NCBI GenBank assembly: GCA_963828415.1
Contig: CAWHEI010000015.1
Coordinates: forward strand, 180,285 to 244,284
Reading direction: 5' to 3'
Origin: Ilumatobacteraceae bacterium
GTDB lineage: Bacteria; Actinomycetota; Acidimicrobiia; Acidimicrobiales; Ilumatobacteraceae
Length of the DNA stretch: 64,000 nucleotides
Position numbers and translations under genes: made by a program. The notes beneath the pieces were generated by a model, which worked only from the letters and a program-made list of their open reading frames with translations, did no database searches and was not told the origin of the DNA. This document shows positions 932-20,320 of this stretch, piece after piece (positions within the stretch are counted from its first letter, which is position 1; the number at the start of each line of letters is the position of its first letter).

Positions 932-949
932 ATGGGGGGTTGGCGAGGC

Positions 950-1834: not shown

Positions 1835-1920
1835 GCGGCGAACCTACCGTGTCGAGCGCTGCGGGAACTCGGGTCGGAGGCCCCTACCCCAACCGAAGGC
1901 CCCCTGCGAACGTTGTTGTC

Positions 1921-4368: not shown

Positions 4369-4369
4369 C

Positions 4370-5215: not shown

Positions 5216-6552
5216 CCCACCGTGCCGGAGCCGGGCCGCTCGGCGCCGGCCCACTCGACAGCGGGGCGCTCACCCGCGTCGAGGGCGAGGGAGCGATGCA
5301 CGTCGAGATCGTCGACGGCCGCCTCGTCGGCGTGACGTTGCAGATCTACGAGCCCCCGCGGTTCTACGAGGGCTTCCTGCGCGGGCGCGGCCACACCGAA
5401 CCGCCCGACATCACGGCTCGCATCTGCGGCATCTGCCCGGTCGCCTATCAGATGTCGGCGTGTCTGGCGATCGAGCAGGCGTGCGGGGTCGAGGTCACCG
5501 ACGGCATCGCCGAGCTGCGCCGACTGCTCTACTGCGGCGAGTGGATCGAGAGTCACACGCTGCACATCCACATGCTGCACGCCCCCGACTTCCTCGGCGT
5601 CGACAGCGTCGTCGATCTCGTCGCGCTCGACCGGGCGGCGGTCGAGCGTGGGCTCGAACTGAAGAAGATCGGCAACGAGCTGCTCGAACTGATCGGCGGC
5701 CGAGCGATCCACCCGGTGAACGTGCGGGTGGGCGGCTTCTACCGTCCCCCGACTCGCGAGGCGTTGCGAGCGTTCCGGCCACGGCTCGCCCGAGCGTTGG
5801 AGCTGGCGGTCGAGGTGTGCGAGTGGGTCGCCGGCTTCGACTTTCCCGACCTCGACACCGACCACGAGCTCGTCGCGCTCGACGATGGCGACCACTACCC
5901 GGTGTTCGGCGATCGGATCGTGTCCGATCGTGGCCTCGACATCACCGTCGACGAGTTCGCACGCCACTTCGAGGAGTTCCAGGTGCCGCATTCGACGGCG
6001 AAGCACGCCCGGCTCCTCTCGCGCAGCAACTACCTCGTCGGCCCACTCGCCCGCTACCGCCTGGCCCGCGAGAAGCTCCTGCCGGCGGCCGCTGCCGCGG
6101 CGAGCGCCGCCGGTCTGGGCGCCACGTGCCCGAACCCGTTCCGCAGCATCATCGTGCGTGCGGTCGAGGTGGTCCACGCCTGTGAGGAGGCGCTGCGCAT
6201 CACCGACGGCCTGATCGACACCAGCATCGACGTCGACCCCGGATCGGTCGAGGTGCCGGCCCGGGCGGGCACCGGCCACGGCGCCACCGAGGCGCCGCGG
6301 GGTCTGCTGTACCACCGCTACACCCTCGACGAGGCCGGGACGATCACCGACGCCGAGATCGTCCCGCCGACGTCGCAGAACCAGCCGACGATCGAGCACG
6401 ACCTGTTCCACTTCGTCGAGTCGCGCCTCGACATGACCGACGACGCACTGGCCCGAGCCGCCGAGGTGACGATCCGCAACCACGATCCGTGCATCTCGTG
6501 CGCAACCCACTTCCTCGACCTCACCGTCGACCGCCGCGGGGGGACGTCATGA
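5212..6552 (+). CDS. [NiFe] hydrogenase large (alpha) subunit, group 3b-like
   Basis: ATGA overlap at 5212-5215. It has the N-terminal metal motif [11 protein letters not shown] and the C-terminal motif DPCISCATH. The subunit set beta/gamma/delta/alpha matches sulfhydrogenase-type group 3b. Confidence 0.92.
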
Positions 6553-7037
6553 GGCCCCTGGTGATCGGCGTGGGCAATCGCTGGCGCGGCGACGACGGCA
6601 TCGGTCCGAAGACGATCGAGGCGCTCGCCGCGCTCGGCGCCGACGGCCCTGAGGCTGATCTGGTTGCACTCGACGGCGAGCCGGGCCGGTTGGTCGCCGT
6701 CTGGGAGGGCCGGTCGCGCGTCGTGATCGTCGACGCCATTGTCACCGGTGACGCGTCGGGAACGGTCCATTGCATTGCGGCGCACCCCGGTGCCGGCCCC
6801 GACCGGATCGATGGTTGGCAGACAGCAACCGGCTCGCACGGCAACGGCATCGCCGCGGCGATCGCTCTGGGCCGCGCGCTCGACAGGCTTCCCGAACAGC
6901 TGGTGGTGGTCGGCGTCGAACCCGGCTGCCTCGATCACGGCGACGAGTTGTCGCCCGCGGTCGCCGCCGCGATCGACATCGTCACCGAGCTGGTCACCCA
7001 CGTCGTCAACGAGGACCTCGATTCCCCATGTGCCTGA
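6549..7037 (+). CDS. hydrogenase maturation endopeptidase (HyaD/HoxW/HycI family)
   Basis: ATGA overlap with the large subunit stop. The N-terminus is [19 protein letters not shown], followed by the VVIVDA and GSHG motifs. Confidence 0.85.
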   Translation: MRPLVIGVGNRWRGDDGIGPKTIEALAALGADGPEADLVALDGEPGRLVAVWEGRSRVVIVDAIVTGDASGTVHCIAAHPGAGPDRIDGWQTATGSHGNGIAAAIALGRALDRLPEQLVVVGVEPGCLDHGDELSPAVAAAIDIVTELVTHVVNEDLDSPCA

Positions 7038-7291
7038 GCGATCTCGGTCGAGTCGTCGATGTCGACGAGGCGCGCCACAGCGTGTCCGTCGACGTCGGCG
7101 ATCGCGTCATCCAGGTGTCGACGGTGACGCTCGGGCTCGACGGTCCCTCGCCGGCCATCGGTGACTGGCTCGTCGTCCACACCGGATTCGCCGTCGAACG
7201 CCTCACCGAAGCGGCAGCCGACGAGATTCAGCAAGCGCGACGCGGGCTCGCCCCGTCGACGCTCGAACTCGACCCGAAGGAGCGGTCATGA
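7028..7291 (+). CDS. hypC: hydrogenase assembly chaperone HypC/HupF family
   Basis: 87 aa starting MCLSDLGRVV, the HypC N-terminal Cys signature. It overlaps the protease gene by 10 nt. Confidence 0.85.
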   Translation: MCLSDLGRVVDVDEARHSVSVDVGDRVIQVSTVTLGLDGPSPAIGDWLVVHTGFAVERLTEAAADEIQQARRGLAPSTLELDPKERS

Positions 7292-8232
7292 CGAACACCA
7301 TGCGCAACACCGGCCTCGCCCTCGCGGGCGTGACCGCCGTCGTCTCCGGTCTCTCCGTCTTCGTGAACGGCTACGGCGTCGCCCACTTCGACGATGCCAC
7401 CACGTACACCACCGCCAAGAACCTCGTCACCGCCGTGGTCCTGATGGTGGCCGTCGTCGTGATGCGCGGGCGACGGGCGCCCGACGCTGCGGCACCTCCG
7501 ACCGCGAGCGCGGCGACGCGCACGCGTCGCGACACCGCAACGCTGGCCGCGATCGCGGTCATCGGAGGCAGCGTGCCGTTCGTGTTGTTCTTCGAGGGCC
7601 TGGCTCAGGTCTCGTCGACCAACGCAGCGTTCATCCACAAGACGCTGGTCGCGTGGGTGGCGATCATGGCGGTGGCGTTCCTGGGCGAACGCGTCACGGT
7701 CTGGCACGTGACGGCGATCGCGCTGATCCTGCTCGGCTATGCGCAACTGGCTGGAGGAGTCGGGTTCCCCGACGTCGGCACCGGCGAGGCGCTGCTCCTG
7801 GCCGCCACACTGTGCTGGTCGGTCGAGGTGATCCTCTCCCGCTCGCTGCTGCGGCGCGGCGTGGCCCCCATGGTCGTCAGCACGTGGCGGATGGCGGGCG
7901 GCATCGTGCTGTTGCTCGCCTGGGCGATCGTCCGCGGGGCGCTCGGCGACCTGCTCGGGCTGTCGGCCACCCAGTGGGCGTGGGCCGTGCTCACCGGCTT
8001 GTTCCTCACCGCGTACGTCGTCAGCTGGCACCACGCGCTCGCTCGGGCACCGGCGGTCGACGTGACCGCCGTGCTCAGCATCGGCGCGGTGATCACCGCG
8101 GCGCTGAACGCAGGAGTGCGCGGGGCCGTCATCGAACCGGTCGGGCTGATCCTGCTGCTCACCGGCGGGCTGCTCGTTGCGTGGGCCTCGATCGTCGGGC
8201 GCCGGACACCGCAGCAGGCGGCGGCGTTGTGA
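7288..8232 (+). CDS. EamA/DMT-family transporter
   Basis: 314 aa with about 10 hydrophobic helices in two EamA-like halves. ATGA overlap with the hypC stop. Confidence 0.8.
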   Translation: MTNTMRNTGLALAGVTAVVSGLSVFVNGYGVAHFDDATTYTTAKNLVTAVVLMVAVVVMRGRRAPDAAAPPTASAATRTRRDTATLAAIAVIGGSVPFVLFFEGLAQVSSTNAAFIHKTLVAWVAIMAVAFLGERVTVWHVTAIALILLGYAQLAGGVGFPDVGTGEALLLAATLCWSVEVILSRSLLRRGVAPMVVSTWRMAGGIVLLLAWAIVRGALGDLLGLSATQWAWAVLTGLFLTAYVVSWHHALARAPAVDVTAVLSIGAVITAALNAGVRGAVIEPVGLILLLTGGLLVAWASIVGRRTPQQAAAL

Positions 8233-8984
8233 GCGTCGATGGCGCCGTCCGGTTCGCCCGCTTCGCGGTGCCGCCGAACCAGCGCGGCTTCTGCGGCCCG
8301 GCCCGCGAGGGCGAGCTCGCCGCCTACCGAGCCGAAGAGCTGCGTGTCGATGCGGGACTGCACGAGTTGGCGTCGGGGTTCGAGGGTGCGTGGCCGTACC
8401 TCGAGTTGCTGGCGGGCGCGGCGGGCGTCGACGATCCGCTGGATGATCGGGTCGTGCAGGCCTACTGGATCGGCAACGATCTCTGCTCGCGGGTGACGCA
8501 CAACGACTGGGGTTGGCACCTCGTCGATCGATTCGGTCCGCGCGCCGGCGGCGACGTCGATCGGCTCACCGCCAGGGTCGGCAACGGCGCGGTGCCGCAC
8601 CACTCGTTCCACGTGTTCTGCGTGTATCCCTGGGTGGGGCTGCTGCGCGAGGGACTCGGCGGTGTCGAGCCGCTGCGGATCCTGGGCCAGTGTCATGTGA
8701 GCTGGGCGACGGTGATCGGTCGCAACGGCGACGACCTGCTCGTGGAGGGTCCCGAGTTGACCTGGGACGGACACGCGCTCGCGCTCGGCGGCGCCGAGCG
8801 GCGATCAGTGTGGCTCGATCCGCGTCTCGTTCGCCTCGGACACGAGATCGACGACGGCTCGGTGGTGGCGATCCACTGGAACGAGGTCGTCGACGTGCTC
8901 GATCACGGTCAACAGCGCTGGCTCGAACGGCTCACGCGCAGTCAGATCGAGGTCGCCAACGACCTCGGCGTCCCCGTGCTCTGA
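8229..8984 (+). CDS. hypothetical protein coupled to the hydrogenase operon
   Basis: 251 aa from GTG 8229, with a GTGA overlap with the EamA stop. Codon bias is strong (VRFARFAVPPNQRGFCGP..., HSFHVFCVYPWVGLL). No family recognised by eye. Confidence 0.7.
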   Translation: MSVDGAVRFARFAVPPNQRGFCGPAREGELAAYRAEELRVDAGLHELASGFEGAWPYLELLAGAAGVDDPLDDRVVQAYWIGNDLCSRVTHNDWGWHLVDRFGPRAGGDVDRLTARVGNGAVPHHSFHVFCVYPWVGLLREGLGGVEPLRILGQCHVSWATVIGRNGDDLLVEGPELTWDGHALALGGAERRSVWLDPRLVRLGHEIDDGSVVAIHWNEVVDVLDHGQQRWLERLTRSQIEVANDLGVPVL

Positions 8985-9023
8985 CCGCCCGCGCCGACCG
9001 CGACCACGCCGTACGCTGGTGCC

Positions 9024-10100
9024 GTGACCGAACTGGCCGGGCAGCTGCGCGTCGTGATGATCGTCATCGACGCGATGCCGCACCGACACGTGAGCCCGGC
9101 CCTGACGCCCAACCTGTGGGGCCAGGCGTCGACCGGCGGGCGGGCACCGATGGGTGCGCTGTCGCTGCCGGTGTCGGTCACCTATGCGAACCACGCTGCG
9201 TTCGTCACGGGCGTCGACCCGACGATCACCGGCGTGCACGGCAACCACACCTGGACCGACGAGGGCTGGACGCCGGCTCCGAAACTGGGGCCGCGCGCGA
9301 CGACCCTGTTCGAGCGGGTCCGAGCCGCAGGTGGGACATCGGCGATGGTCGTCGGCGACCAGAAACTGGTCGGCCAGATGGGCGGGTCGAGCGCCGACGT
9401 GTGTTGGCCGCCCGCCGGTCGCCTCCCTGACGGCACCGAGCGCTGCCTGTTCGGCTACGCCTCCGATGCGGCGGTTCTCGCGGCACTCGATGGCATCGAC
9501 CTCGACGTCGACGTCGCCGTGATCCACCTCAACGAACCCGACACCACGTCGCACCTGTTCGGACCGGACTCGCCGGAGGCGTTCGAGCAGTACCGAGCGA
9601 CCGACGCTGCATACGGCGAGGTGATCTCCCGGCTCGCCGATGCGTGGGACAGCACGCTGGTGCTGACCGTGTCGGATCACGACCAGGAGACGATCACCGA
9701 CTTCACCCCGGTCGAACTGGCCGAAGCGTTCGCCACCATCGAGGGCGTGGACGTCGCCGACGAGGGGACGGCCGCACTCGTGCACCGGGCGCCCGGCAGC
9801 ATCGACGACGACCGGCTGGCCGACCTCATCCGATCGGTCGACGGTGTCGAGGCGGCGGTGGCGCTCACACCGGAGATCTGGATGGCGTGGACGGAACCCG
9901 GCCGAGCGTTCGGGACCACGCCGATTCCGATTCATGGCCAGCACGGCAGCCCGCGCTGTCGCACGCAGATGGCGATCGTGTCCGGCGGCGACGGGCGCGT
10001 CGGCGGCGTCGCACGACAGCTCGAACGCCGCCAGCCATCGGTGCTCGACTGGGCACCGATGATCGCCCGGCTCCTCCAGCTCGACGAGGGCTCGACGTGA
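9024..10100 (+). CDS. alkaline-phosphatase-superfamily enzyme (nucleotide pyrophosphatase/phosphodiesterase type)
   Basis: 358 aa with motifs VIDAMPHRHV..NLW, YANHAAFVTG, HLNEPDTTSHLFGP and VSDHDQE. Confidence 0.8.
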   Translation: MTELAGQLRVVMIVIDAMPHRHVSPALTPNLWGQASTGGRAPMGALSLPVSVTYANHAAFVTGVDPTITGVHGNHTWTDEGWTPAPKLGPRATTLFERVRAAGGTSAMVVGDQKLVGQMGGSSADVCWPPAGRLPDGTERCLFGYASDAAVLAALDGIDLDVDVAVIHLNEPDTTSHLFGPDSPEAFEQYRATDAAYGEVISRLADAWDSTLVLTVSDHDQETITDFTPVELAEAFATIEGVDVADEGTAALVHRAPGSIDDDRLADLIRSVDGVEAAVALTPEIWMAWTEPGRAFGTTPIPIHGQHGSPRCRTQMAIVSGGDGRVGGVARQLERRQPSVLDWAPMIARLLQLDEGST

Positions 10101-10876
10101 GCGGCGGTGTCGATCGGGTCGACGTGGCAGCGTTCCGGCGCGACGGCTGGCTCATGCTTCCCCAGGCGCTGTCGTCGGTGCAACTCGACGCGCTCGACAC
10201 GGCGGTCACACGACTGCAGGGGTGGGCCGAGACCGGCGGGCCGGGTCTGCACCACTTCGAACAGACCGACACGGGCGCGGTGCTGGCACGCAGCGAAGAC
10301 TTCGTCGACGCCGACCCGGTCTTCCACGACGTCATCCGAAGCGGCATCGTCGTCGACGTCCTCGCCCAACTGTTCGGCGACGAGCCGGTGCTGTTCAAGG
10401 AGAAGATCAACTACAAGCAGCCGGGCGGTGGCGGCTTCGCTCCGCACCAGGACGCGACGGCGTACCGCTTCGTCGACCATCACATCTCGTGCATGGTGCC
10501 GCTCGACCCGGCGACCCCCGAGAGCGGCTGTCTGTACGTGGCGCCCGGCTACGAGGCGGGTCGTCTGCCGACCGACGAGCGAGGTCGGGTCGAGGAGTCG
10601 ACCGCTGCAGGGCTCGGCTGGCAGCCGGTGCCGCTCGAGCCGGGGGACCTGTTGTTCTTCGACTCGTACACGCCGCACTACAGCGACACGAACACCACGA
10701 CCCGGGCACGGCGGGCGGCGTACCTCACCTACAACGCGACGTCGCTCGGCGATCACCGCGACCGCTACTACGCCGACAAACGCGCCGAGTTCGAACGGGC
10801 AGGCGGTGACTTCGAGGGCGAACGAGTCCGGATCAGCATCAGCGACGACTTCCTCGGACGACCGGTGCAGCGGTGA
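10097..10876 (+). CDS. PhyH-family Fe(II)/2-oxoglutarate dioxygenase (PhnY*-like)
   Basis: GTG 10097 overlaps the upstream stop. Motifs are FRRDGWLML, HQDATAY (HxD), FFDSYTPHYS (distal His) and RRAAYLTYN. Confidence 0.85.
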   Translation: MSGGVDRVDVAAFRRDGWLMLPQALSSVQLDALDTAVTRLQGWAETGGPGLHHFEQTDTGAVLARSEDFVDADPVFHDVIRSGIVVDVLAQLFGDEPVLFKEKINYKQPGGGGFAPHQDATAYRFVDHHISCMVPLDPATPESGCLYVAPGYEAGRLPTDERGRVEESTAAGLGWQPVPLEPGDLLFFDSYTPHYSDTNTTTRARRAAYLTYNATSLGDHRDRYYADKRAEFERAGGDFEGERVRISISDDFLGRPVQR

Positions 10877-11406
10877 ACGAACTCGCCGCGCTCTACGCCT
10901 CGCCGGCCGCGCTGCGGATGTACGACGAGGCGGTCACCGAACTCGACCATGCACTGCAGGCAGCAGCGCTCGCGCGATCCGAGGGTGCGCCCGACCACCT
11001 GGTGGCTGCGGCGCTGCTCCACGACGTCGGCCATCTCGTGTCGGACGACAACGTCACGCTCGACGACGACCTCACCGACGACTTCCACCACGAGCGGGTG
11101 GGCGCCCAGTACCTCGCCCGCTGGTTCGGACCGGAGGTCACCGCGCCCGTCGCGCTCCACGTGGCCGCGAAGCGCTATCTCTGTGCGGTCGAGCCCGGCT
11201 ACCTCGACGGCCTGTCGCCGTCGTCAGCCCGAAGCCTCGCGCTCCAGGGCGGGCCGATGTCGGCTGACGAGGTGACACGGTTCGAACAGCTCCCCCATCA
11301 CGACGCCGCGGTACGGGTTCGTCGCTGGGACGACCAGGCCAAGGTCGCCGGTCTCGACGTCGGCGTCTTCGCCGACCACCAACTGCTCCTCGACACGCTG
11401 GCCTGA
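10873..11406 (+). CDS. HD-domain oxygenase, PhnZ-like (phosphonate C-P cleavage family)
   Basis: The start overlaps the PhyH stop. HD ligand pattern: LDHALQ, LLHDVGH, FHHERVGAQYL, HVAAKRYL, RRWDDQAK. Confidence 0.8.
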   Translation: MNELAALYASPAALRMYDEAVTELDHALQAAALARSEGAPDHLVAAALLHDVGHLVSDDNVTLDDDLTDDFHHERVGAQYLARWFGPEVTAPVALHVAAKRYLCAVEPGYLDGLSPSSARSLALQGGPMSADEVTRFEQLPHHDAAVRVRRWDDQAKVAGLDVGVFADHQLLLDTLA

Positions 11407-12246: not shown

Positions 12247-12416
12247 GACGCTCCTTGGCAGCGGGGACCAACGTGGGTCCGCACGGCGTGTCGGCGCGTG
12301 ATCGCGCCGGGCCTGGTGTTCGTGACCCGCAATGTTACGGAATCATGACGAAACACCTCGCGGCGCGGGTGGGTCATCGGTCACATCAGTCGGCGCCGGT
12401 GAGTACGGTCTCACAG

Positions 12417-12797
12417 ATGGAACCGGTGATCGCCGAGGTGCTCGACGCCAACCGTGCGTTCTACGACGCACACGAGGCGCGCGACCTCGATGCGATGCGG
12501 GCGGTGTGGGAGCACCACGACCATGTCGTGTGCGTGCATCCGGGGTGGCCGATCCTGCGCACCTGGGCCCACGTCGAAGAGTCGTGGCGGCGAATCTTCG
12601 ACGGGCCGGGCCGCAACCAGTTCATCCTCACCAACGAGGCCGTTGCCGTGCACGGCGACACCGCGTGGGTGACGCTCGACGAGAACCTCGTCGATGCCGG
12701 CGGTACCGGCACCGTCGCAGCCACGAACCTCTACGTCCGCCGCGACGGTCGCTGGCTGCTCGTCGCGCACCACGGCTCGCCGGTCATCGCGAGCTGA
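12417..12797 (+). CDS. SnoaL/NTF2-like (DUF4440-type) protein
   Basis: 126 aa from ATG 12417, with an alternative ATG at 12345. It shows the NTF2-like pattern (ANRAFYDAHEARDLDAMRAVW..., AWVTLDENL, RRDGRWLLVAHHGSP). Confidence 0.75.
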   Translation: MEPVIAEVLDANRAFYDAHEARDLDAMRAVWEHHDHVVCVHPGWPILRTWAHVEESWRRIFDGPGRNQFILTNEAVAVHGDTAWVTLDENLVDAGGTGTVAATNLYVRRDGRWLLVAHHGSPVIAS

Positions 12798-12817: not shown

Positions 12818-13753
12818 TCAGCCGGATCGATCCGGGATGCCGAGTGTGACATCCATCGAGATCCGGTACGAGAACGTCGCCGCCGTCGGCCCATCGAGGC
12901 CCAGCAGGGCGGCAACGTCGAGGGTCGGGTGACGCGGGAAGTCGACGGTCCACTCACCGTCGAGCGGGCCTCCGTCGTGGAACACGATGTCGCCCACGGA
13001 ACTCACCAGTACTTCTTGCACCTCGGTGGACGACGGCTCGCCCGGGGCACGCAGTTGTCGCAGCAGGAACACCTGGTGGGGTGCATACTTCAGGACCGAC
13101 GTCAGATCGATCGCCGACGCGACGCCGTCGATGCGATGCTCGGTGGCGTCGTCGAGCAGCCGATCGAGCACCGCATCGACCACTTCCTGACCCGTGCTCC
13201 ACGCGGAACGAGCGACAGCCTGCCCAGCGGTGAGTTCGACGGTGTTGATCACTTCCTCGGTCACACGCTGGTCGGGAGCGCCGGGGAACACCGCGGCGGT
13301 CGTCGAGAACCGGGGCGCCGACTGCTCCAGGTCGGCCATCTCGATGGTGCCGAGATTCTTCGGGTAGCCGAACCCCTCGCGACCTTCGATCACCGCGATC
13401 GCCTGATCGACCCACACGAGCGGCACGTACCACCCGATCCGCGGGAGTTCGAGACCACCGGGCAGTTCGGCCACCAGCATCCAGACCATCAGGTCGTTCT
13501 CGGCGTAATACCCCTGGCGCGACGACGGCGCGTCGGGCGACGAGCTGCGTTCGATCGCCACATAGGTCACCACGACGAACGGCAGCACGGGCACGAATCG
13601 GCGGCCGCCTCCGGCCTGGTTCAACTCGGCGTCGAGCAACCGCTGCAACGCCGAATATCTCGTCTCGACGACGAAGCCGTGGAACGACGACCCCTCGGCG
13701 CGATACGGCGGCGGGGCGAATGGGTCGGAGTCTCGATAGATGTATGGGCTCAT
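12818..13753 (-). CDS. acetoacetate decarboxylase (ADC)-fold family protein
   Basis: 311 aa from ATG 13753, with an ATGA overlap with the cyclase stop. It has the ADC-family-like motif VIEGREGFGYPK and a beta-rich composition. Confidence 0.7.
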   Translation of the reverse strand: MSPYIYRDSDPFAPPPYRAEGSSFHGFVVETRYSALQRLLDAELNQAGGGRRFVPVLPFVVVTYVAIERSSSPDAPSSRQGYYAENDLMVWMLVAELPGGLELPRIGWYVPLVWVDQAIAVIEGREGFGYPKNLGTIEMADLEQSAPRFSTTAAVFPGAPDQRVTEEVINTVELTAGQAVARSAWSTGQEVVDAVLDRLLDDATEHRIDGVASAIDLTSVLKYAPHQVFLLRQLRAPGEPSSTEVQEVLVSSVGDIVFHDGGPLDGEWTVDFPRHPTLDVAALLGLDGPTAATFSYRISMDVTLGIPDRSG

Positions 13754-16700
13754 GTCGTCTCCGTGACTGCCTGGGTGGGGTCGATCAGTGAATGCGACAC
13801 GCATCGCATCGGTTCGACGCCGACGCGGCGCACCGCCCGCCCGAGGCGGCGTTCGTCGAGCCGGCGCCGCAGGCGACCCGCGACCTGGGGTCGGCGAAGC
13901 TCGTCGGCGCGCACGAGCGCTGCGTGATAGCTCGGTCGACCGACCGGGAACAGCATCCGGAACACGCCGAACGACACGAGCACCCGCCGATGCAGCACCC
14001 GCAACGACCGTGCCCGCAACGGCGCCTCGCGCTGGGCGCGTTCGCGCATGATCGCCACGGCTTCGTCGAGAAACACGTATTGACAGAGTAGGTAGAAGAA
14101 GCTCGGCGGCGTGGCCAGGAGCGAATCAGACGCCGCCCGAACTGCGCGCTCGGCCGCGGCGAAGTCGGGCTCGGTACGAGCGGCGATCAGCCCTCGACAA
14201 ACCGACCGGAACAGGATCGACACGCCGTCGGCCGGCAGATCGTTGCCTGCGTCGAGGCGACCCTGCGCCTCGGCATCGCGACCCATCGCGAGCAACGCCA
14301 TCGCCTCGCCGTTGTAGCCCCACGCGCTCATTCGGGGATCACCACGCGACGAGGCGCTCACCCCCAGCCGCCCATAGCGGTCGAGTGCAGTCTCGAGGTC
14401 ATTGGCGTAACAGTCGGCGTACCCGGCCGATGATTCGACAACTTCAGCGATGTACGGCGACCCCCACGTGTCGCAGGCAGCACTCGCCTCGGCCAGCAGT
14501 CGAGATGCCGTCTCGAGATCCCCGTCACCGATCAGACGCATGCCGCGGAACACCTTGGCTTCCGCGACGCCGCTGGGTCCAGCGTCGGCGACGGCGCGGT
14601 CCAGGAGGCGGGCGTACACGTCGGCGACGCGCCGCAGACCGAGGCTGCGCGAGCCCACCTCGGCCATGCCATACGTCGAGGTCAGCTCGCTGCTGACAGC
14701 GCCCTCCTCCGCGAGGTTCAGCGACGTCAGCGCCACGAACAGCGTGAGCACCGCATCGTCGTCGTCCGACGCCATCAGATTGACCACCCGGAGCGCCGTC
14801 AATGCGGCAGTGGCGCGTTCGCGGGCGTGTTCACTCACGTCGACGCGAGCCCCCCAGAGGCGATGTCGGATCTGACGGACCACCCCCTCGGCGATCACCC
14901 GGAACCACTCGCCGACCGTCTCCGGAATGGCCACGTCGAGCAGGACGAGCGCCTGGGCGAGTTCCTGACGGTGCTGCTCGAGTGCCCCAGCGCTCCGCGC
15001 CGCTTCGGCAAGCGCGATGTGCCATCGGGCGCGGGTGACGTGATCGACTGCGAGGCCGTGTCGCGCCGCCAGGTCCTGAGCAGAACTCACGTAGCGTGCC
15101 GTCTGCGGACCAGCGAAGATCGGACCAGAACGAAGCGCCGCGTCGGACAGATACGGAAGCGCCCTCGCCGCGTCGTCGGCCTCGCTCCAATGGTGGGCGA
15201 GCAGCTCGACTGCGTCGGGATCATCGGGCCGTTCGGCCTCGATCATCTCGGCGGCTCGACGATGCAGCGACCGGTGCTGGGCCGGCGTCAACAGGGATGC
15301 GGCGACGTCGCGGGTGATCGAGTGCTGGAACCGGAAACGATCCCCGTCGACGACGAGCAACCCGCGAGCAACCAGTTCGGTGAGAGCTGCGTCGGCTTGT
15401 TCGACCGTCGGTGCCATCGGATGCAGCTCGCGCGCCTGGCCGGCGGTGAATCTCGATCCGAGGATGGCTGCCGCCTTCAGCGTCAGGGCAGTGAGTGGTT
15501 CGAGACAGTCGACGGTGCCCGCGACCACGCGATGCACATCGGTCGGCACGACGACCGGTTGCATCGCGGCGGTGATCGCGTGGACCCGAACGAGGTCGCC
15601 GACCGGTTCGATCTCGCCGGCGACCACCGCTGCGTCGACGAGCTGTTCGACCAGGAACGGGTTCCCAGCGGCGTGGCGATGGATTCGATCGACCACCGAC
15701 TCCGGCACCGCCCGCACCCCGAGACGTCGGCGGATGACCTCGGCGACGCCCTCGCGGTCCAAACCCTCCAACTCGATGACCTCGGCGTCGTCCCGACCGA
15801 CCAGTGCCAACCACATCACGACCTCGGGGGCCGAACGACTCTCGACGATCACGGCGGCACCCTCCCGATCGGCGAGCACCGACCCGACCACCTCGAGCGA
15901 GGCCGGGTCGAACCAGTGGGCGTCGTGGATGACGACGATCATCGGGCCGTCCGGCAACGCTTCGCGCAAGTCGCGCTGCAACCCAGCCGAAGCTGCGGAG
16001 CGAATCGGTCCGGGCGCGATGGCCGAGGTGCTGTCCCCGTAGAGCGAGTCGAGCGTGTGCCCAGCCGCCTCGGGCCGCACCTGCCGGAGGAACTGGCTGA
16101 CGCCACGCAACGGGGTGTCCCCGAGGATCGGGTGGCCCCGGAACTCGACCAACTCGAGCCCCATCGACGCCGCCTCCGCGATGCCGGCGGCGATCAGTGT
16201 CGACTTGCCGGCGCCCGGGGGACCTTCGAGCACGAGCACCCGGGGACGTTCACCGCGGCGAGCAGCATCCAGGTTCCTGCGGATCTGTTCGAGTTCCCCG
16301 CGACGCGCGACGATTCCCGCTCCCATCGCGGTGCCACCAGGAGTGCCCCCGGCGGCGACGCCGCTGGCACGAGTCGGCACCGACACGGCCACCTCGCCCA
16401 AGCCCTTCAGGTCGTAGTGGACGGTGCGATAGTCGAGACCGGTGTCTGCCAGCCGTGCGGTCTCGGCGTCGACTCGAACCTGTCCGCGTTCGAGTCCGGC
16501 GAGCCGCGCAGCGAGGTTCACGGTGGGCCCGAGACAGGTGAACGTGCGATGGCGGTCGTCGCCGAACGCACCGATGACGGTGGTTCCGGTGGCGATGCCG
16601 ATCGTCAGCGACAGCCGCAGCTCCGCCGCCGCCTCGATCGAGCGCAGCGCGGTGTCGACGGCACGCAGCGGTGCATGTTCGGGCGATCGGTCGGCCTGCG

Positions 16701-17577
16701 TGCCGAACATCGCCGCGATCTGCAAGCCCTTCTCGTCCCAGATCAGCTGGTCGATCGGGGCGTCGCCGAGCACGAACAGGCGATGCAGGCCGGCGACCGC
16801 GTCGACGATCCGTCCGGAATCGGTGAGGTGCGACCCGTGCTCGTCGGAGAGCTGGCAGAACAAGACGGTCAGCGGTCGGACCTCGCCGAGCCAGTCGGTC
16901 GATGCCGTCTCGCCCGCCAAGGTCCTCGGCAGCAGGTCGCTCAGCCCCGACGTCGACGTGTCGACCGGCCACGTCGCTGCCGGGCCGCGCCACCCGGCGA
17001 CCGACTCGTGCTCGTACACCGAATCCGGTGCCACGTGCGTCTGAGCTTGCGCCGCCAACGCCGGCGGATCGCCGATCAGCGTCCACACCCGCCGTTCGCC
17101 GACGGGGACGAGCAGCAGCTGGCTGAGACCGGCGGCCAAGCCCACGCGCAGCGACGGCAGGTCGGGCTGATCGCCTCGGAGTTGCGAGATCGAACGGGCA
17201 GCCTGCCGGGCACGCCGACGGACGTCGTCCGGATCGTCGCCGGGGAACACCGCCACCGTGGCGTCGCCGATCCGGACGAGCGTCTGGCCACCGAAGCTGC
17301 CGATGATCGAGTCCATCGCCGAGTAGCTCCGATCGAGCAGTTCGGTGAGCGAGGCGTGGCCTCGACGACCCAAGCCATCGAGACGCACGACCGTGGGCGT
17401 GAACCCGACGAGGTCGGCGACCAGCGCGATCCCCGGGAGGTCCACCGACGCGGGACCGACGGGATGCTCCGATGCGAGCGCCCTGACCGCGGCGGGAAGG
17501 AACCGGCGTTCGGCGGCAACGATGACGTCGGAGTTCGCTGTCGCCGGCGGCTTCACCGTGACCCTCCGCTCGCCCAT
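13750..17577 (-). CDS. tandem class III nucleotidyl cyclase domains + STAND/AAA NTPase + helical-repeat (TPR-like) protein
   Basis: 1275 aa. CHD1 has ADLVGFT and RIGDATVAVF. CHD2 has TIGIATG and GPTVNLAARL. The Walker A GPPGAGKST is at 16201..16224, and a long helical C-terminus follows. An alternative GTG start at 17556 forms GTGA with the upstream stop. Confidence 0.9.
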   Translation of the reverse strand: MGERRVTVKPPATANSDVIVAAERRFLPAAVRALASEHPVGPASVDLPGIALVADLVGFTPTVVRLDGLGRRGHASLTELLDRSYSAMDSIIGSFGGQTLVRIGDATVAVFPGDDPDDVRRRARQAARSISQLRGDQPDLPSLRVGLAAGLSQLLLVPVGERRVWTLIGDPPALAAQAQTHVAPDSVYEHESVAGWRGPAATWPVDTSTSGLSDLLPRTLAGETASTDWLGEVRPLTVLFCQLSDEHGSHLTDSGRIVDAVAGLHRLFVLGDAPIDQLIWDEKGLQIAAMFGTQADRSPEHAPLRAVDTALRSIEAAAELRLSLTIGIATGTTVIGAFGDDRHRTFTCLGPTVNLAARLAGLERGQVRVDAETARLADTGLDYRTVHYDLKGLGEVAVSVPTRASGVAAGGTPGGTAMGAGIVARRGELEQIRRNLDAARRGERPRVLVLEGPPGAGKSTLIAAGIAEAASMGLELVEFRGHPILGDTPLRGVSQFLRQVRPEAAGHTLDSLYGDSTSAIAPGPIRSAASAGLQRDLREALPDGPMIVVIHDAHWFDPASLEVVGSVLADREGAAVIVESRSAPEVVMWLALVGRDDAEVIELEGLDREGVAEVIRRRLGVRAVPESVVDRIHRHAAGNPFLVEQLVDAAVVAGEIEPVGDLVRVHAITAAMQPVVVPTDVHRVVAGTVDCLEPLTALTLKAAAILGSRFTAGQARELHPMAPTVEQADAALTELVARGLLVVDGDRFRFQHSITRDVAASLLTPAQHRSLHRRAAEMIEAERPDDPDAVELLAHHWSEADDAARALPYLSDAALRSGPIFAGPQTARYVSSAQDLAARHGLAVDHVTRARWHIALAEAARSAGALEQHRQELAQALVLLDVAIPETVGEWFRVIAEGVVRQIRHRLWGARVDVSEHARERATAALTALRVVNLMASDDDDAVLTLFVALTSLNLAEEGAVSSELTSTYGMAEVGSRSLGLRRVADVYARLLDRAVADAGPSGVAEAKVFRGMRLIGDGDLETASRLLAEASAACDTWGSPYIAEVVESSAGYADCYANDLETALDRYGRLGVSASSRGDPRMSAWGYNGEAMALLAMGRDAEAQGRLDAGNDLPADGVSILFRSVCRGLIAARTEPDFAAAERAVRAASDSLLATPPSFFYLLCQYVFLDEAVAIMRERAQREAPLRARSLRVLHRRVLVSFGVFRMLFPVGRPSYHAALVRADELRRPQVAGRLRRRLDERRLGRAVRRVGVEPMRCVSHSLIDPTQAVTETT

Positions 17578-19709
17578 GGTCCTCGGAACGGCGCGAAGTC
17601 GGTCTCGCCGTAGATGGCGATGTCGTCGCCGGTGATCGCCCGAGCGCCGGCGAGACCACCCATCACGGCCGCTTCGATACAGCCGTACCCGAGGCCGGTA
17701 CGCACCCAGTCGCCGACCACGACGAGGCCGTCGAGGCCGGTACCGCCGGGCGTCGGACGCGCGTCCATCGAACCGACGGGCGACTGGCAGTACCGAGCGG
17801 TCGGGTCGATGTTGGTGGACCAGAACTGATCGTCGAGCGCGTCCGCGCTCGACGCGGGATACAACACAGCGTCGTCGAAGCCCGACGCCACCGCATCGGC
17901 CGCCGCCGGCCAGAGCGTGGCCCCGTGCTGGTCGAGCCAGCGCCGCAGATCGTCACCGGCGCGGTCGTGCACGGCAGCCGGGATGCTCGGATCCGGCACC
18001 GGCGGCCCGGCCGGAGCTGCTGGTAGGACGCCGCACAGGTACTGCAACGACTCGGGCGGATCGCCGGGTGTCCAGTGCTCGGCGGCGAGCAGATGGCTCA
18101 TGTCGGCCCAGGTGTCGATCGGTGGCGCGAACGCCGTTGCGATCGTGGCGGGCTGCGCGGCGCCCAGATCGCCCGACGTCGGGTTCATCCAGAGTTGGAC
18201 CCCCTGCGTCGCAACGGTGGGAATGGCGTCGACCGCAGCGCGTAGCGACGCCGACGAGGCGAGCACGTCGGGCGCCACCATGGGCAGGCACGACGGCGGC
18301 AGCCCGAGCACCAGCGTGTCGAAGTCGCGACCGCGTTCGAGTCGCAGTGTCGACACGTCGGGCCAATCGTTCCACGCCGACTCGAGATCGACGCCCTGCT
18401 GTTGCAGCTCCGCGCCCTGCACGAGCTGGTCGTATCGAGGTGTGGTGGGCCACACCTCCAGGCCGTCCAGATCGACCAGCGGCGAGTAGCGACCGTCGGG
18501 CGCCGTGACGGCGACGGTGGCCTGGACGCCGAACTCGATGGCGAGCACCTGCTTGCTGTCCGGGTCGACTTCGACGCTGCGCAGGACGTGGAAGAACTCG
18601 ATGGCGACGCCTCGCCGTTCCAGGGCCTGATGGATGGGGGCGACGACCGTGTCGCCGGCGCCGGCGTTCATCCGCCAGAACACTGCGCCGCTGGAAGCGA
18701 GGAGCAGTCGCAACAACATGCGCAGCCCGGTGCCGGCCTCGAGGTCGGGGCGCGCCGGATCGCCGTCGATGAAGGCGAAGATGTACGAGTAGGCGCCGCG
18801 CACGAATCCGGACCCGAGCGTGAGATCGTGCGCGCCGGCGCCACGGAGATACGTGGTCAGCTCGGTGTGGTTGATCACGTCGAAACCGTGAGCGAAGACG
18901 CCATCTCTCGCGAATCCCCGCAGGTAGGCGAGACCCAGGTCGACCAGCGCGATGACTTCGAGCAACTCGGAGTCAGCCTCGATCAGGTCATCGAGCCACC
19001 CATGCGTGAGTCGTTGGACGGCGGATGCCGCGGCCTCGAGCTCGGCACACAGCGCCACCGCGCCCGCGTCGAGCAGATGGGCGATCTCGTGGAATCCGGC
19101 GAACAGCCAACGGATCCCCTCGCTGACGTGCCCGGACGTCGGTGGCGGCGCCGAGAGTCCGGTGACCCCCGGCAGTGTCACGTCCGAGGTGTCGGCCATC
19201 GAATGCCCCAAGACCGCGTCCGAGGGTTCGTAGCCCTCGAGCAGCTCCAGGCCGAAGCTCACCATCCGGGCCATCAGGTCGGCCGGCGAACCCAACCGTC
19301 CGGCTTCGCCGGGAAGTTGGTCGTTGCTCGGCACGTTGTCGGTGACGCGCACCCAGTGCTGATCGATCGAACTGAACCACGAGACATCGCTCCACGGACT
19401 GAACGCGTCCTGCCAGGTCGCCAGCGGATGCGTCGGCGGCCGGTCGAGTTCGCCGTAGACCTCTCTGATCATCCAGAAGGCGTTCTCGTAGAAGCCCGAC
19501 CAGACGTGCAGTCCGTGCTCTTCGATGCGTCCGTGCCGGTCGAGATTGCGGCCGCTGGCCAGCTTTCCTCCGAGGCGCCATCCCTGCTGGTGGATGGTGA
19601 CGTCGTACCGTTCCGGTTGGCGGGAGAGCCAGTAGGCACACGACAACGACGACATGCCGCCACCGACGACGAGCACCCGCTGGGACGTCGCTGGTTGCGT
19701 GGCGGACAT
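17553..19709 (-). CDS. FAD/NAD(P)-binding oxidoreductase (COG3349/HpnE- or amine-oxidase-like) with large insertions
   Basis: 718 aa from ATG 19709, preceded by AGGAG. It has the dinucleotide fold VLVVGGGMSSLSCAYWL, then GWRLGGK, EEHGLHVWSGFYENAF and a C-terminal VVVGDWV. Confidence 0.85.
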   Translation of the reverse strand: MSATQPATSQRVLVVGGGMSSLSCAYWLSRQPERYDVTIHQQGWRLGGKLASGRNLDRHGRIEEHGLHVWSGFYENAFWMIREVYGELDRPPTHPLATWQDAFSPWSDVSWFSSIDQHWVRVTDNVPSNDQLPGEAGRLGSPADLMARMVSFGLELLEGYEPSDAVLGHSMADTSDVTLPGVTGLSAPPPTSGHVSEGIRWLFAGFHEIAHLLDAGAVALCAELEAAASAVQRLTHGWLDDLIEADSELLEVIALVDLGLAYLRGFARDGVFAHGFDVINHTELTTYLRGAGAHDLTLGSGFVRGAYSYIFAFIDGDPARPDLEAGTGLRMLLRLLLASSGAVFWRMNAGAGDTVVAPIHQALERRGVAIEFFHVLRSVEVDPDSKQVLAIEFGVQATVAVTAPDGRYSPLVDLDGLEVWPTTPRYDQLVQGAELQQQGVDLESAWNDWPDVSTLRLERGRDFDTLVLGLPPSCLPMVAPDVLASSASLRAAVDAIPTVATQGVQLWMNPTSGDLGAAQPATIATAFAPPIDTWADMSHLLAAEHWTPGDPPESLQYLCGVLPAAPAGPPVPDPSIPAAVHDRAGDDLRRWLDQHGATLWPAAADAVASGFDDAVLYPASSADALDDQFWSTNIDPTARYCQSPVGSMDARPTPGGTGLDGLVVVGDWVRTGLGYGCIEAAVMGGLAGARAITGDDIAIYGETDFAPFRGPWASGGSR

Positions 19710-19837
19710 CGGGCTCCTGAATCGTTCGATACTGACCTCGACAACGTACTCCCCCGTACGGCGCGCCGATCCGCCGGCCAACGCGGACCGGGTGGCCGAT
19801 CTCGCCACCCTGCGACCCAGTCGACAAGGATGTCGAC

Positions 19838-20320
19838 ATGTCGACACTGCCCACGGTTCCGCAGTTCGGTGCGCTCCTGCGGTCACACATCGCGAGCGTC
19901 CCCGACGCTGCACGCCCCGCGTTCCTGTCCGGGCTCGAGCGTTCGGCAGCGGCGCGCTACCGGGAGTGGGCCGACGCCGCTGCGGAGCACTCCGCCGTGC
20001 TCCTCGACTGCGCCGCCCGCGAAGACGAGATCGCCGAACTGGTCGCCGGGTTGTTCCCGCTCGACGCCGAGATGCAGCAGGCGGTCGACGACGCGCTCCC
20101 GGCCGCCGTCGCCGTGTACTACGAGGTGTTCGCCCCGTACGACGTGCTCGATCAGCTCTACCTGCAGTCCGAGGCCGAACTGCAAGGTGCGCAGGCATGG
20201 GTCGGCATCGCCGCCGGCATCGACGACGACGCGACTCGTGACGTGCTGGCGCGCTGCACCGCGCTCGAACAAGAGAGCGCCGCTGCCGTGAAGGACCTCC
20301 TGGCGACCGTTCGCGTCTGA
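19838..20320 (+). CDS. hypothetical all-helical protein
   Basis: 160 aa. ATG is preceded by AAGGA and GC3 is high. It is divergent from the oxidoreductase operon. No family recognised. Confidence 0.7.
   Translation: MSTLPTVPQFGALLRSHIASVPDAARPAFLSGLERSAAARYREWADAAAEHSAVLLDCAAREDEIAELVAGLFPLDAEMQQAVDDALPAAVAVYYEVFAPYDVLDQLYLQSEAELQGAQAWVGIAAGIDDDATRDVLARCTALEQESAAAVKDLLATVRV

Follow-up and report, generated by a model that had tools for sequence, protein, structure and literature searches.

A chain of three overlapping genes

Within the window, the whole 64-kb stretch of DNA that we analysed, three minus-strand genes run head to tail. Gene 1 (17553..19709) encodes a 718-amino-acid flavoprotein recognized by Pfam NAD_binding_8, gene 2 (13750..17577 from an ATG, or 13750..17556 from a GTG) encodes a tandem-cyclase STAND NTPase with several Pfam domains, and gene 3 (12818..13753) encodes a 311-amino-acid protein matched by Pfam ADC. 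All three open reading frames (ORFs) have a coding-type GC3 of 0.82–0.85. The genes around this trio are of housekeeping type, and its base composition is like that of the rest of the window.

The chaining by overlaps described in an earlier note on this DNA held at each junction. Genes 1 and 2 meet in a GTGA at 17556-17553 (a 4-bp overlap), with the alternative ATG 17577 also present, and genes 2 and 3 share an ATGA at 13753-13750, a second 4-bp overlap in which the gene 3 ATG lies on the gene 2 stop. A Shine-Dalgarno-like AGGAG on the minus strand (19714..19718, read from 19718 to 19714) precedes the gene 1 ATG at 19709 with a spacer of 4 nt, where the note had placed a ribosome-binding site. 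Its statement that no other gene has an obvious one proved wrong: GGAGG at 17567-17563 stands 6 nt before GTG 17556 of gene 2, and GGAG at 13762-13759 stands 5 nt before ATG 13753 of gene 3. Upstream of ATG 17577 we found GAGGA alone, 2 nt away. Because GGAGG precedes the GTG, and because the flavoprotein stop and STAND start overlap by 4 bp in 2 related loci (L001 and L003), GTG 17556 is more likely than ATG 17577 to be the start of gene 2, giving a protein of 1,268 rather than 1,275 amino acids. From this layout the trio probably constitutes a single translationally coupled operon.

A 160-amino-acid ORF at 19838-20320 diverges from the trio. Described earlier as a helical orphan, it does look like a real gene, with a GC3 of 0.86 and a call in another assembly. 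Its Pfam search gave no match, and no homologue was present at any related locus examined; it therefore lies outside the conserved unit.

A flavoprotein and an ADC-fold protein flank the cyclase

Gene 1 has an N-terminal dinucleotide-binding match (NAD_binding_8, 42 bits). Over its N-terminal 70–85 residues only, it also matches the NCBIfam models for HpnE (44.8 bits against a cut-off of 283) and PDS (19 bits against 569), with an N-terminal ZDS match likewise far below its cut-off. The AF2 model (pLDDT 89) has an FAD-oxidoreductase fold, and its top Foldseek match is rice PDS (5MOG; E 3e-18, TMt 0.77). Profile and fold searches thus agree with the earlier description of a COG3349/HpnE-like flavoprotein. 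Gene 1 shares the PDS superfamily and is not an orthologue of PDS or HpnE; we rejected both assignments on scores far under the equivalog cut-offs. Similar to PDS/CrtP and HpnE in fold and in its N-terminal FAD-binding region, gene 1 differs from PDS and HpnE by ~250 extra, mostly helical residues, and has no carotenoid or hopanoid genes nearby. The same note had called the flavoprotein insert-bearing. A helical region of ~200 amino acids (~residues 140–340) is indeed there, but it is common to the whole ~700-amino-acid family rather than special to gene 1. We found more than 1,165 homologues of this flavoprotein, many with a fused ADC domain.

Gene 3 exceeds the cut-off of Pfam ADC (PF06314; 44.1 bits against 29.8). 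Its AF2 model (pLDDT 93) matches the ADC structures 3C8W, 3BGT and 3BH2 in Foldseek at TMt 0.75, with a probability of 1.00 for 3C8W and 3BGT, and also matches Sbi00515, MppR and Swit_4259. Profile and structure together bear out the double-barrel ADC fold proposed earlier, one shared at TMt 0.60–0.75 with Adc (3BH2, 3BGT), Sbi00515 (4ZBO), MppR (4JM3) and Swit_4259 (5UPB). In ADC superfamily enzymes, the lysine of the GRE..G.PK motif carries the Schiff base. The candidate Schiff-base lysine of gene 3, Lys132 (minus-strand codon 13358-13360), ends the corresponding motif GRExxGxPK and aligns with GREQTGIPK of 3CMB; both motif and lysine are invariant in 19 sequences spanning split and fused forms. 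The next residue is Asn133, whereas true Adc (EC 4.1.1.4), whose active-site set also includes Arg29 and Glu76, has a Lys-Lys pair, and we do not file gene 3 as an acetoacetate decarboxylase. It is also ~60 residues longer than these relatives and, unlike known ADC enzymes, obligately partnered with a flavoprotein, to which it is often fused. None of the 3 proteins of the trio reaches the cut-off of a characterized equivalog or pathway, in keeping with the earlier placement of the 3 in known families that are not known to be united by any described pathway.

Gene 2 combines a tandem cyclase, a STAND NTPase and a sensor-type domain

From its N terminus, gene 2 carries a tandem C1–C2 cyclase, a P-loop NTPase and a helical region, among which Pfam detects Guanylate_cyc (PF00211; 310-395) and AAA_16. 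On the minus strand, these features comprise a C1-like cyclase domain 1 (~residues 45–200; 16978..17445), placed by alignment to human soluble adenylyl cyclase (sAC); a C2-like domain 2 (~residues 228–400; 16378..16896), placed by a match to ADCY10 and by Guanylate_cyc; a STAND/MalT-type AAA_16 P-loop NTPase with Walker motifs (15862..16311); and a C-terminal helical sensor-type domain of ~430 amino acids (13777..15069), defined by a phmmer family and a custom HMM. The tandem cyclase had been read from the letters alone; alignment to C1 and C2 of human sAC and a custom HMM now agree on it.

The catalytic residues are divided between the 2 cyclase domains as in sAC, where C1 likewise gives both metal-binding Asp and C2 gives Thr, Asn and Arg. 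Domain 1 keeps the metal-binding D55 and D105 (sAC D47 and D99), conserved in 8 homologues, and has no Asn/Arg pair; domain 2, from which the first metal Asp is missing, keeps T347, N354 (sAC N412) and R358 (sAC R416). Metal Asp, Asn and Arg are retained together in 7 of the 8 tandem-cyclase homologues, and the homologue from locus L004 has Ile in place of the catalytic Asn. This pattern suggests a catalytically competent cyclase, which would be an intramolecular C1–C2 pseudo-heterodimer with one composite active site. Of the adenine-specifying residues (Lys with Asp or Thr), gene 2 retains the Thr, T347, but Gln277 replaces the base-specifying Lys, at whose position homologues carry Q, H, R, Y or K.

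The AAA_16 match (47.7 bits against a cut-off of 32.6) includes Walker A GPPGAGKST, conserved among homologues, and a Walker B region of the form hhhhDAHWxD. In gene 2 itself the C-terminal sensor domain has no Pfam match, and in the homologue from L004 Pfam detects TPR_12. Pfam (E ≤ 0.01) finds no helix-turn-helix (HTH) of any kind, hence no Rv0386-type LuxR HTH, as anticipated for a STAND protein without a DNA-binding domain. A cyclic nucleotide (cNMP) would then be the sole visible output of gene 2. The operon encodes no cNMP receptor; the nearest cNMP-binding gene in the window lies ~9 kb from the trio, inside a hydrogenase cluster.

Two known groups of proteins resemble gene 2. Its top PDB sequence match is ADCY10 (residues 228–373 against 284–431, E 1e-13), which likewise has an N-terminal tandem C1–C2 pseudo-heterodimer of class III (IIIb-type). 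Full-length sAC continues from the cyclase pair into a P-loop NTPase/TPR-like region, the same domain order. Gene 2 differs in being bacterial and translationally coupled to 2 enzymes, in having a C-terminal sensor from a bacterial family common to kinase-headed STAND proteins, and in carrying Val101 for Lys95 of the bicarbonate-binding pair (Lys95 and Arg176) and Gln277 for the adenine-specifying Lys334. The mycobacterial LAL-type proteins Rv0386, Rv1358 and Rv2488c also join a class III cyclase to an AAA_16/MalT-type ATPase and helical repeats. Each of these proteins has a single, homodimeric cyclase domain and a C-terminal LuxR HTH, whereas gene 2 has 2 complementary domains and no HTH. In Rv0386, an enzyme with mixed AC/GC activity, a Gln likewise replaces the substrate-specifying Lys.

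An exhaustive phmmer search gathered 433 representative clusters with the sensor domain, which is almost always C-terminal in proteins of 1,100–1,400 amino acids. Its heads include tandem cyclases (48) and Ser/Thr kinases (33), and our custom sensor HMM also matches the kinase-AAA_16 proteins of loci L046 and L070. On these predicted architectures, the domain swaps between cyclase and Ser/Thr kinase heads.

The trio is conserved and its enzymes are often fused

The order and overlaps of the trio recur in at least 5 other actinobacterial assemblies (L001, L003, L004, L087 and L090), an arrangement that exceeds chance. Flavoprotein, STAND protein and ADC-fold protein follow in this order in L001, L004 and L090; in L003 the flavoprotein is cut by the contig end, and the L087 contig holds the STAND and ADC ORFs only. 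The STAND–ADC junction is a 4-bp overlap in 3 of the loci (L001, L003 and L004) and an 8-bp overlap in L090. Identity is lowest in L004, at 47% for the flavoprotein, 32% for the STAND protein and 39% for the ADC-fold protein, and the genes flanking the trio vary among the 5 loci.

Outside this lineage, the flavoprotein and ADC domain occur fused in many phyla and as adjacent separate genes in other bacteria. Among long (>950 amino acids) flavoprotein homologues, 25 of 26 bear an ADC domain, N-terminal in 10 and C-terminal in 15; fusions have therefore arisen in both orders. ADC was detected at 56 of 83 loci, in most cases as the immediate upstream neighbour of the flavoprotein, and ~24 of 80 loci had no detected ADC, many of them on short contigs. 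By this Rosetta-stone link, the flavoprotein and ADC-fold protein probably belong together as 2 halves of one enzyme system. The earlier note had asked how far the association extends beyond the lineage: the trio holds in Actinomycetota down to 32–47% identity, and the fused flavoprotein–ADC pair across many phyla.

Diverse signalling genes adjoin the enzyme pair

With one genome per species from 185,579 species, flavoprotein relatives were confirmed at no fewer than (that is, at least) 584 stretches in ~10 phyla. Culturable carriers are found in Janthinobacterium, Massilia, Duganella, Pseudoalteromonas, Sorangium and Nostoc. We analysed the neighbourhoods of 79 species-level loci, which represent at least 8 phyla. 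The density of signalling ORFs is 0.72 per kb at distances of up to 300 bp from the flavoprotein/ADC module and 0.03–0.045 per kb at 2–8 kb, a ~20-fold enrichment directly beside it. A signalling gene lies within 300 bp in 32 loci and within 3 kb in 57 of 79, while ~20 of 79 have none inside 10 kb, many of these on short contigs. Many of the 80 loci come from related genera (Oxalobacteraceae, Pseudoalteromonas), so that fewer independent events lie behind these counts than the figures suggest.

By Pfam, the neighbours are cyclase-AAA_16-TPR, Pkinase-AAA_16-GAF-HisKA and Pkinase-AAA_16-TPR proteins, 7TMR-DISM hybrid His-kinases and 7TMR-DISM-GGDEF proteins; kinase-headed proteins with the same sensor domain as gene 2 also adjoin flavoprotein–ADC fusions. 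In the reciprocal test, the flavoprotein/ADC module was adjacent in 3 of 6 informative sensor relatives (L090, L084 and L091) and not adjacent in the other 3 (L086, L094 and L095). In most of the 80 species-level genomes, the pair has a cyclase-STAND protein or another signalling protein next to it. It is the constant part and its signalling partner is interchangeable, a link broader than a cyclase plus 2 enzymes. Because outputs vary around a constant enzyme pair, we argue for a link between enzyme and input.

Other neighbours bear on the substrate. One cluster sub-type (8 loci) includes a polyprenyl synthetase with 49–65% identity across phyla, to which L064 adds a ~29% relative, and FadL/TodX transporters adjoin the module in 6 loci. 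Together with the PDS structural match and the N-terminal matches to HpnE, PDS and ZDS, these genes hint at a hydrophobic enzyme substrate. No polyprenyl synthetase or FadL gene lies near the trio in the window, so the isoprenoid hint stems from other sub-types.

Discussion

Our results support the earlier proposal of a sensor-cyclase coupled to a two-enzyme small-molecule module, through profile and fold searches and through co-occurrence. We found no published description of such a module. As evenly balanced as we hold the case to be, our best explanation of the operon is an enzyme-coupled signalling module. Gene 1 would be the FAD oxidase or desaturase half of an enzyme system and gene 3 its ADC-fold half, with the Schiff-base Lys132 kept; in an actinobacterial lineage, gene 2 would have been inserted between these halves. 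The enzyme pair would make or convert a small hydrophobic molecule, possibly derived from an isoprenoid or a lipid, and the STAND sensor would detect either the molecule itself or the enzyme loaded with it. Nucleotide-dependent oligomerization of gene 2 would then turn on cyclic nucleotide synthesis. What we observed directly is the layout of the operon, the folds, the catalytic motifs that are kept, the gene fusions and the neighbourhood that recurs; we infer that the enzymes are active, what their substrate is, that the ligand is a substrate or product of theirs, which cyclic nucleotide is made and which way the signal runs.

The enzymes might instead be the regulated party. A STAND cyclase that senses an unrelated cue could control the expression or activity of a biosynthetic or catabolic flavoprotein/ADC pathway by way of cNMP and a Crp-type factor whose gene lies elsewhere, much as LAL, MalT and AfsR-type STAND proteins control their own clusters. 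AAA_16/MalT-type STAND ATPases are classic cluster-situated regulators, Rv0386-type proteins unite a cyclase with an ATPase, TPR and a LuxR HTH, one cluster sub-type looks biosynthetic (polyprenyl synthetase), and the window does encode a cNMP-binding protein. However, gene 2 lacks an HTH and sits mid-operon, translationally coupled, and would therefore be made only when the enzymes are made. It is also unlikely that 4 partner outputs (cNMP, Ser/Thr phosphorylation, His-Asp relay and c-di-GMP) would converge on one enzyme, and a shared input is simpler; we consider this reading unlikely. The split of the enzyme exactly at the STAND insertion in this lineage raises another idea, that the helical C terminus of gene 2 mainly binds flavoprotein and ADC-fold protein to assemble the 2 parts of the enzyme or to gate it, the cyclase being vestigial or secondary. 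Translational coupling of all 3 genes favours stoichiometric co-assembly, TPR-like domains commonly bind proteins, and the catalytic Asn is gone from the L004 homologue. A scaffold is nevertheless improbable when 7 of 8 tandem-cyclase homologues keep the metal Asp, Asn and Arg, and when the fused flavoprotein–ADC protein, which needs no scaffold, has signalling neighbours all the same.

Defence systems include STAND NTPases as well as class III-like cyclases, and PADLOC returned a weak, generic cyclase-domain match to PycC (E 6.5e-8), so one could picture an anti-phage or conflict role in which the STAND protein senses an invader, the cyclase makes a nucleotide signal of the Pycsar kind, and the effectors are the flavoprotein and the ADC-fold protein. 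We think this very improbable: PADLOC matched neither the flavoprotein nor the ADC-fold protein and called no system (Pycsar, Avs or others), the base composition matches the window and the neighbours are housekeeping-type, and the partners of the enzyme pair elsewhere (7TMR-DISM kinases, GGDEF, FadL and polyprenyl synthetase) do not form a defence-island pattern. Least probable of all, and strongly disfavoured, is a fortuitous operon of 3 co-transcribed but functionally unrelated genes. High-GC operons often contain 4-bp overlaps, which alone prove nothing, but gene order is kept down to 32–47% identity, fusions occur in both orders and the ~20-fold signalling enrichment extends across phyla.

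Starting from the enzyme-coupled signalling module, a bolder and distinctly tentative reading, which we would not expect to hold but do not dismiss, makes the flavoprotein–ADC protein the synthase or processing enzyme of an unrecognized class of bacterial signal, possibly isoprenoid-derived. Dedicated receptors would share one input and swap their outputs among cyclic nucleotide, Ser/Thr phosphorylation, His-Asp phosphorelay and c-di-GMP. If this were true, the actinobacterial trio would be a compact hormone-synthase-plus-receptor operon, its receptor a bacterial counterpart of sAC. Known enzyme-plus-receptor pairs and stand-alone sensor partners offer analogies (LuxI/LuxR, AfsA/ArpA, H-NOX beside His-kinase or GGDEF genes, and MalT with the maltose genes): they share the concepts of interchangeable transducers encoded beside a protein that handles a small molecule, and of a STAND switch under metabolite control. 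The likeness goes no further than analogy, as these systems are unrelated to the trio in sequence and differ in enzymes, sensor and outputs.

Several carriers of the module are culturable, and the idea is therefore directly testable. If correct, it would give a large orphan family of flavoproteins and ADC-fold proteins a testable partner across phyla. It would also offer a possible input for the large cyclase-AAA_16-TPR and kinase-AAA_16 STAND proteins, which are abundant in actinobacteria, myxobacteria and cyanobacteria; to our knowledge, almost none of these proteins has a known ligand. The trio would provide a bacterial model for soluble adenylyl cyclase, in which, as far as we know, the role of the C-terminal NTPase/TPR half of the full-length protein is still unclear. 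More broadly, the family would present a case of one sensory input re-wired to 4 second-messenger and phosphorylation outputs.

Layout and start sites of the trio

Three overlapping minus-strand genes encode a flavoprotein (gene 1, 17553-19709, 718 aa), a tandem-cyclase STAND NTPase (gene 2, 13750-17577, 1275 aa) and an acetoacetate decarboxylase (ADC)-fold protein (gene 3, 12818-13753, 311 aa). Their GC3 of 0.82-0.85 is of the coding type, and the window is 66-71% GC along its whole length. The overlaps described in the earlier note can be read at both junctions: the gene 1 stop (TGA, 17555-17553) overlaps GTG 17556, and the gene 2 stop (TGA, 13752-13750) overlaps ATG 13753 of gene 3. That note saw an obvious ribosome-binding site only ahead of gene 1 (AGGAG at 19718-19714, start ATG 19709), yet Shine-Dalgarno-like motifs also precede the internal starts, with GGAGG (17567-17563) 6 nt upstream of GTG 17556 and GGAG (13762-13759) 5 nt upstream of ATG 13753. 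The alternative gene 2 start, ATG 17577, lies 25 nt within gene 1 and has merely GAGGA, 2 nt upstream. Given the GGAGG spacing, the poor motif at ATG 17577 and the 4-bp overlap of flavoprotein stop with STAND start in two related loci (L001 and L003), GTG 17556 is favoured as the probable start of gene 2. A consensus scan for sigma-70 promoters and intrinsic terminators, uninformative in a genome of 68% GC, found none.

The trio is a conserved unit

Close relatives of the ADC protein were few (10 matches), and their contigs share the gene order of the trio, in line with the synteny expected if the three genes belong together. L001 and L003 encode ADC proteins of 71% and 69% identity, the L003 flavoprotein being cut by the contig end, and a Solirubrobacterales metagenome-assembled genome (L004) retains all three genes at 47% (flavoprotein), 32% (STAND) and 39% (ADC) identity. 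The STAND-ADC overlap is 4 bp in each of these loci. Another contig, L087, contains mutually overlapping STAND and ADC ORFs, and L090 contains a complete trio whose flavoprotein-STAND and STAND-ADC overlaps are 4 bp and 8 bp, respectively. L002 has STAND-homologous segments in several reading frames (116-3989) ahead of an ADC gene truncated to 242 aa, a pattern explained by decay of this copy of the module or by indel errors from long-read assembly. Because the flanking genes vary among these related loci, the trio itself is the conserved unit. Divergence made an alignment of 8 STAND sequences unsuitable for scanning the collection; one of 4 sequences recovered a single metagenome locus.

The divergent 160-aa ORF at 19838-20320 appears coding but has no Pfam match and no homologue at any related locus, which rules it out as a member of the system. 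On the other side of the trio, a plus-strand SnoaL-like gene (12255-12797) converges with the ADC gene, with ~20 bp between stops, and downstream plus-strand genes (7288-11406) encode an EamA transporter, DUF6390, a type I phosphodiesterase/nucleotide pyrophosphatase, PhyH and an HD-domain protein. Nucleotides are conceivable substrates for the phosphodiesterase and the HD protein. Near the cyclase gene, a 175-aa cNMP-binding-domain protein (3012-3539, plus strand), ~9 kb from the trio, was the single candidate found for a cyclic-nucleotide receptor. It lies within a NiFe-hydrogenase cluster (~1-7000; HypC, HycI, large and small subunits, NAD_binding_1 and an Fe-S protein); these assignments come from the precomputed Pfam annotation of the corresponding region in a second assembly (L088).

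Each component belongs to a known superfamily

All three proteins are members of known superfamilies. Gene 1 carries NAD_binding_8 at its N-terminus (Pfam), where NCBIfam gave weak HpnE, phytoene desaturase and zeta-carotene desaturase matches, all far under cut-off; PDB sequence searches, single or profile, matched only the N-terminal FAD motif. A confident AlphaFold2 model (pLDDT 89, pTM 0.93; 34-sequence alignment) best matched rice phytoene desaturase (5MOG; E 3e-18, TM 0.77 on target), followed by LSD1, nicotine oxidases, protoporphyrinogen oxidase and L-amino-acid oxidases. This fold and the weak N-terminal matches agree with the earlier assignment to HpnE/COG3349-like flavoproteins. The 'insert' proposed for gene 1 is a real helical region (approximately residues 140-340) but is common to the whole ~700-aa family. 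That family is large, with >1165 homologue matches; scanning one genome per species confirmed at least 584 relatives.

In gene 2, Guanylate_cyc and AAA_16 scored above the Pfam threshold and no DNA-binding domain was found by Pfam, bearing out its description as a cyclase-AAA/STAND protein lacking such a domain. Unlike the Rv0386 type, with its single cyclase domain and LuxR HTH, gene 2 has two cyclase domains and no HTH. Among PDB sequences it best matches human soluble adenylyl cyclase (sAC, ADCY10), whose full-length form has the same domain order: tandem cyclase, P-loop NTPase and helical region. Residue alignment to human sAC showed that domain 1 holds both metal aspartates (D55=D47, D105=D99) and no Asn/Arg pair, and that domain 2 lacks the first of these aspartates but retains T347=T405, N354=N412 and R358=R416. 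Such complementary C1/C2 degeneracy predicts a pseudo-heterodimer with one active site. Gln277 replaces the adenine-specifying Lys334 of sAC at a position that varies among homologues, and the Walker A and AAA_16-type Walker B motifs are intact.

The ADC fold proposed for gene 3 holds on two counts: its Pfam ADC score of 44.1 bits exceeds the 29.8 threshold, and its model (pLDDT 93) matches acetoacetate decarboxylases 3C8W, 3BGT and 3BH2 at TM 0.75, as well as the ADC-superfamily enzymes Sbi00515, MppR and Swit_4259. We used this fold search in place of a PDB profile search, which with the close ADC alignment returned spurious spike-protein matches only. A GRExxGxPK motif including Lys132 is unchanged in 19 of 19 split and fused ADC sequences and aligns with GREQTGIPK of 3CMB; this is the Schiff-base lysine of characterised ADC-superfamily members. 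Global MAFFT alignment of ADC proteins with full-length fusions split the ADC domain across the flavoprotein, and cut-out domains were aligned instead.

Flavoprotein and ADC as a probable enzyme pair

Among the homologues listed, 25 of the 26 flavoproteins longer than 950 aa contain an ADC domain, N-terminal in 10 and C-terminal in 15. That fusions arose independently in both orders strongly indicates that flavoprotein and ADC act as one enzyme system. ADC was detected in 56 of 83 loci, mostly immediately upstream of the flavoprotein; the STAND gene separates the two in the actinobacterial lineage. Several Acidobacteriota and Gemmatimonadota loci encode three or four tandem flavoprotein paralogues (L034, 7623-14243; L054, 9761-16467; L025, 839-11673). 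In L025, where no ADC domain was detected, the paralogues flank a tandem-cyclase STAND gene. In Rhodobacteraceae (L033, 9992-12967; L038, 9995-12970), a 991-aa flavoprotein ORF with an extra C-terminal part of ~270 aa overlaps the start of a cyclase-AAA_16 gene; in Sulfitobacter (L032) a separate unknown protein comes after the flavoprotein, and the extension may be its counterpart.

The enzyme pair adjoins diverse signalling proteins

The module occurs in Actinomycetota, Chloroflexota, Gemmatimonadota, Acidobacteriota, Bacteroidota, Verrucomicrobiota, Cyanobacteria, Myxococcota, Nitrospirota, Margulisiibacteriota and Alpha-, Beta- and Gammaproteobacteria. Co-occurrence thus extends well beyond the original lineage, with the enzyme pair beside signalling proteins in many phyla. 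Pfam resolved its large neighbours into four types: cyclase(-cyclase)-AAA_16-TPR; Pkinase-AAA_16-GAF-HisKA-HATPase of ~1800 aa, at times with receiver/Hpt; Pkinase-AAA_16-TPR; and 7TMR-DISM hybrid histidine kinases with 7TMR-DISMED2-7TM-GGDEF proteins. Using custom domain HMMs and signalling ORFs of at least 450 aa, we counted such ORFs within 300 bp of the module in 32, within 1 kb in 42 and within 3 kb in 57 of 79 species-level loci, counts that are not independent because many loci come from related genera. Beyond these, two loci have a tandem-cyclase STAND gene amid flavoprotein paralogues. Signalling-ORF density was 0.72 per kb at up to 300 bp from the module versus 0.03-0.045 per kb at 2-8 kb. 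A caffeoyl-CoA-type O-methyltransferase gene lies between the ADC-flavoprotein fusion and 7TMR-DISM hybrid kinase genes in L031 (12172-12831, minus strand) and at the equivalent position in other Oxalobacteraceae loci.

When the C-terminal 439 residues of gene 2, spanning its helical sensor domain, were searched exhaustively, 433 representative clusters emerged; a word-indexed search had returned mostly generic cyclase/AAA_16 proteins at ~30% query cover. The domain is nearly always C-terminal in proteins of 1100-1400 aa, and the heads on 96 long matches were a tandem cyclase in 48 and a Ser/Thr kinase in 33. Its HMM matched, at full length, kinase-AAA_16 proteins beside flavoprotein/ADC genes in Polyangiaceae and Sorangium. 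In a small reciprocal test via representative proteins, 3 of 6 informative relatives adjoined the module (the L090 trio, a fusion directly downstream in L084 and one 0.8 kb downstream in L091), the other 3 had no adjacent module, and one more contig was too short. Since the PK-AAA_16-GAF-HK and single-cyclase-AAA_16-TPR neighbours bear other sensor regions, at least three sensor scaffolds are involved beside the module.

Neighbouring genes point to a hydrophobic substrate

Eight loci from different phyla (L027, L032, L037, L041, L061, L065, L079 and L081; for example, L065, 9959-19911) share a sub-type in which the flavoprotein is followed by a ~300-aa unknown protein, a polyprenyl synthetase and an 825-1250-aa protein whose ADC domain is N-terminal and whose large remainder is uncharacterised. 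The synthetase is 49-65% identical across phyla, and a ninth locus (L064) encodes a ~29% relative. After the ADC-domain protein, a cyclase-AAA_16-TPR gene often comes next. We ruled out a hidden ADC domain in the ~300-aa protein (hhalign probability 0.3%). L065 and L037 also contain a saccharopine-dehydrogenase-like gene. In 6 loci the module has FadL/TodX outer-membrane transporters next to it, and in Pseudoalteromonas TonB-dependent receptors; in the window, neither these nor a polyprenyl synthetase was found near the trio. Together with the phytoene-desaturase-like fold, these neighbours point to a hydrophobic, possibly isoprenoid-derived substrate for the enzyme pair.

A proposed mechanism and its alternatives

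We found no link between the flavoprotein/ADC pair and signalling proteins in the open-access literature. Because the enzyme pair is constant and the outputs vary (cNMP, Ser/Thr phosphorylation, His-Asp relay and c-di-GMP), we infer that the pair sits on the input side of signalling. The flavoprotein would oxidise or desaturate a hydrophobic substrate, and its ADC-fold partner would then process a carbonyl-bearing intermediate through a Lys132 Schiff base, possibly by decarboxylation, retro-aldol cleavage or hydration, all reactions of characterised ADC-superfamily members. The C-terminal sensor of the STAND protein may read the substrate, the product or the enzyme complex, with switching via the NTPase turning on the C1-C2 cyclase, the sole visible output.

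Control could instead run the opposite way, the STAND protein being a cluster-situated regulator of the enzymes, a reading made plausible by LAL and MalT regulators; we nevertheless consider it unlikely, as it fits the mid-operon gene position and the variety of outputs less well. That the STAND protein serves as a scaffold for a split enzyme seems more doubtful still. A defence system is very improbable: PADLOC gave just a generic PycC cyclase match, base composition is host-like and the neighbours are non-defence genes. Conservation contradicts a chance grouping, which we regard as the least probable reading. An enzyme pair feeding a signalling protein, as we propose, would give an orphan flavoprotein/ADC enzyme family a testable link, offer a candidate input for STAND signalling proteins without a ligand and may provide a bacterial model for the non-catalytic half of soluble adenylyl cyclase, whose domain architecture gene 2 parallels.
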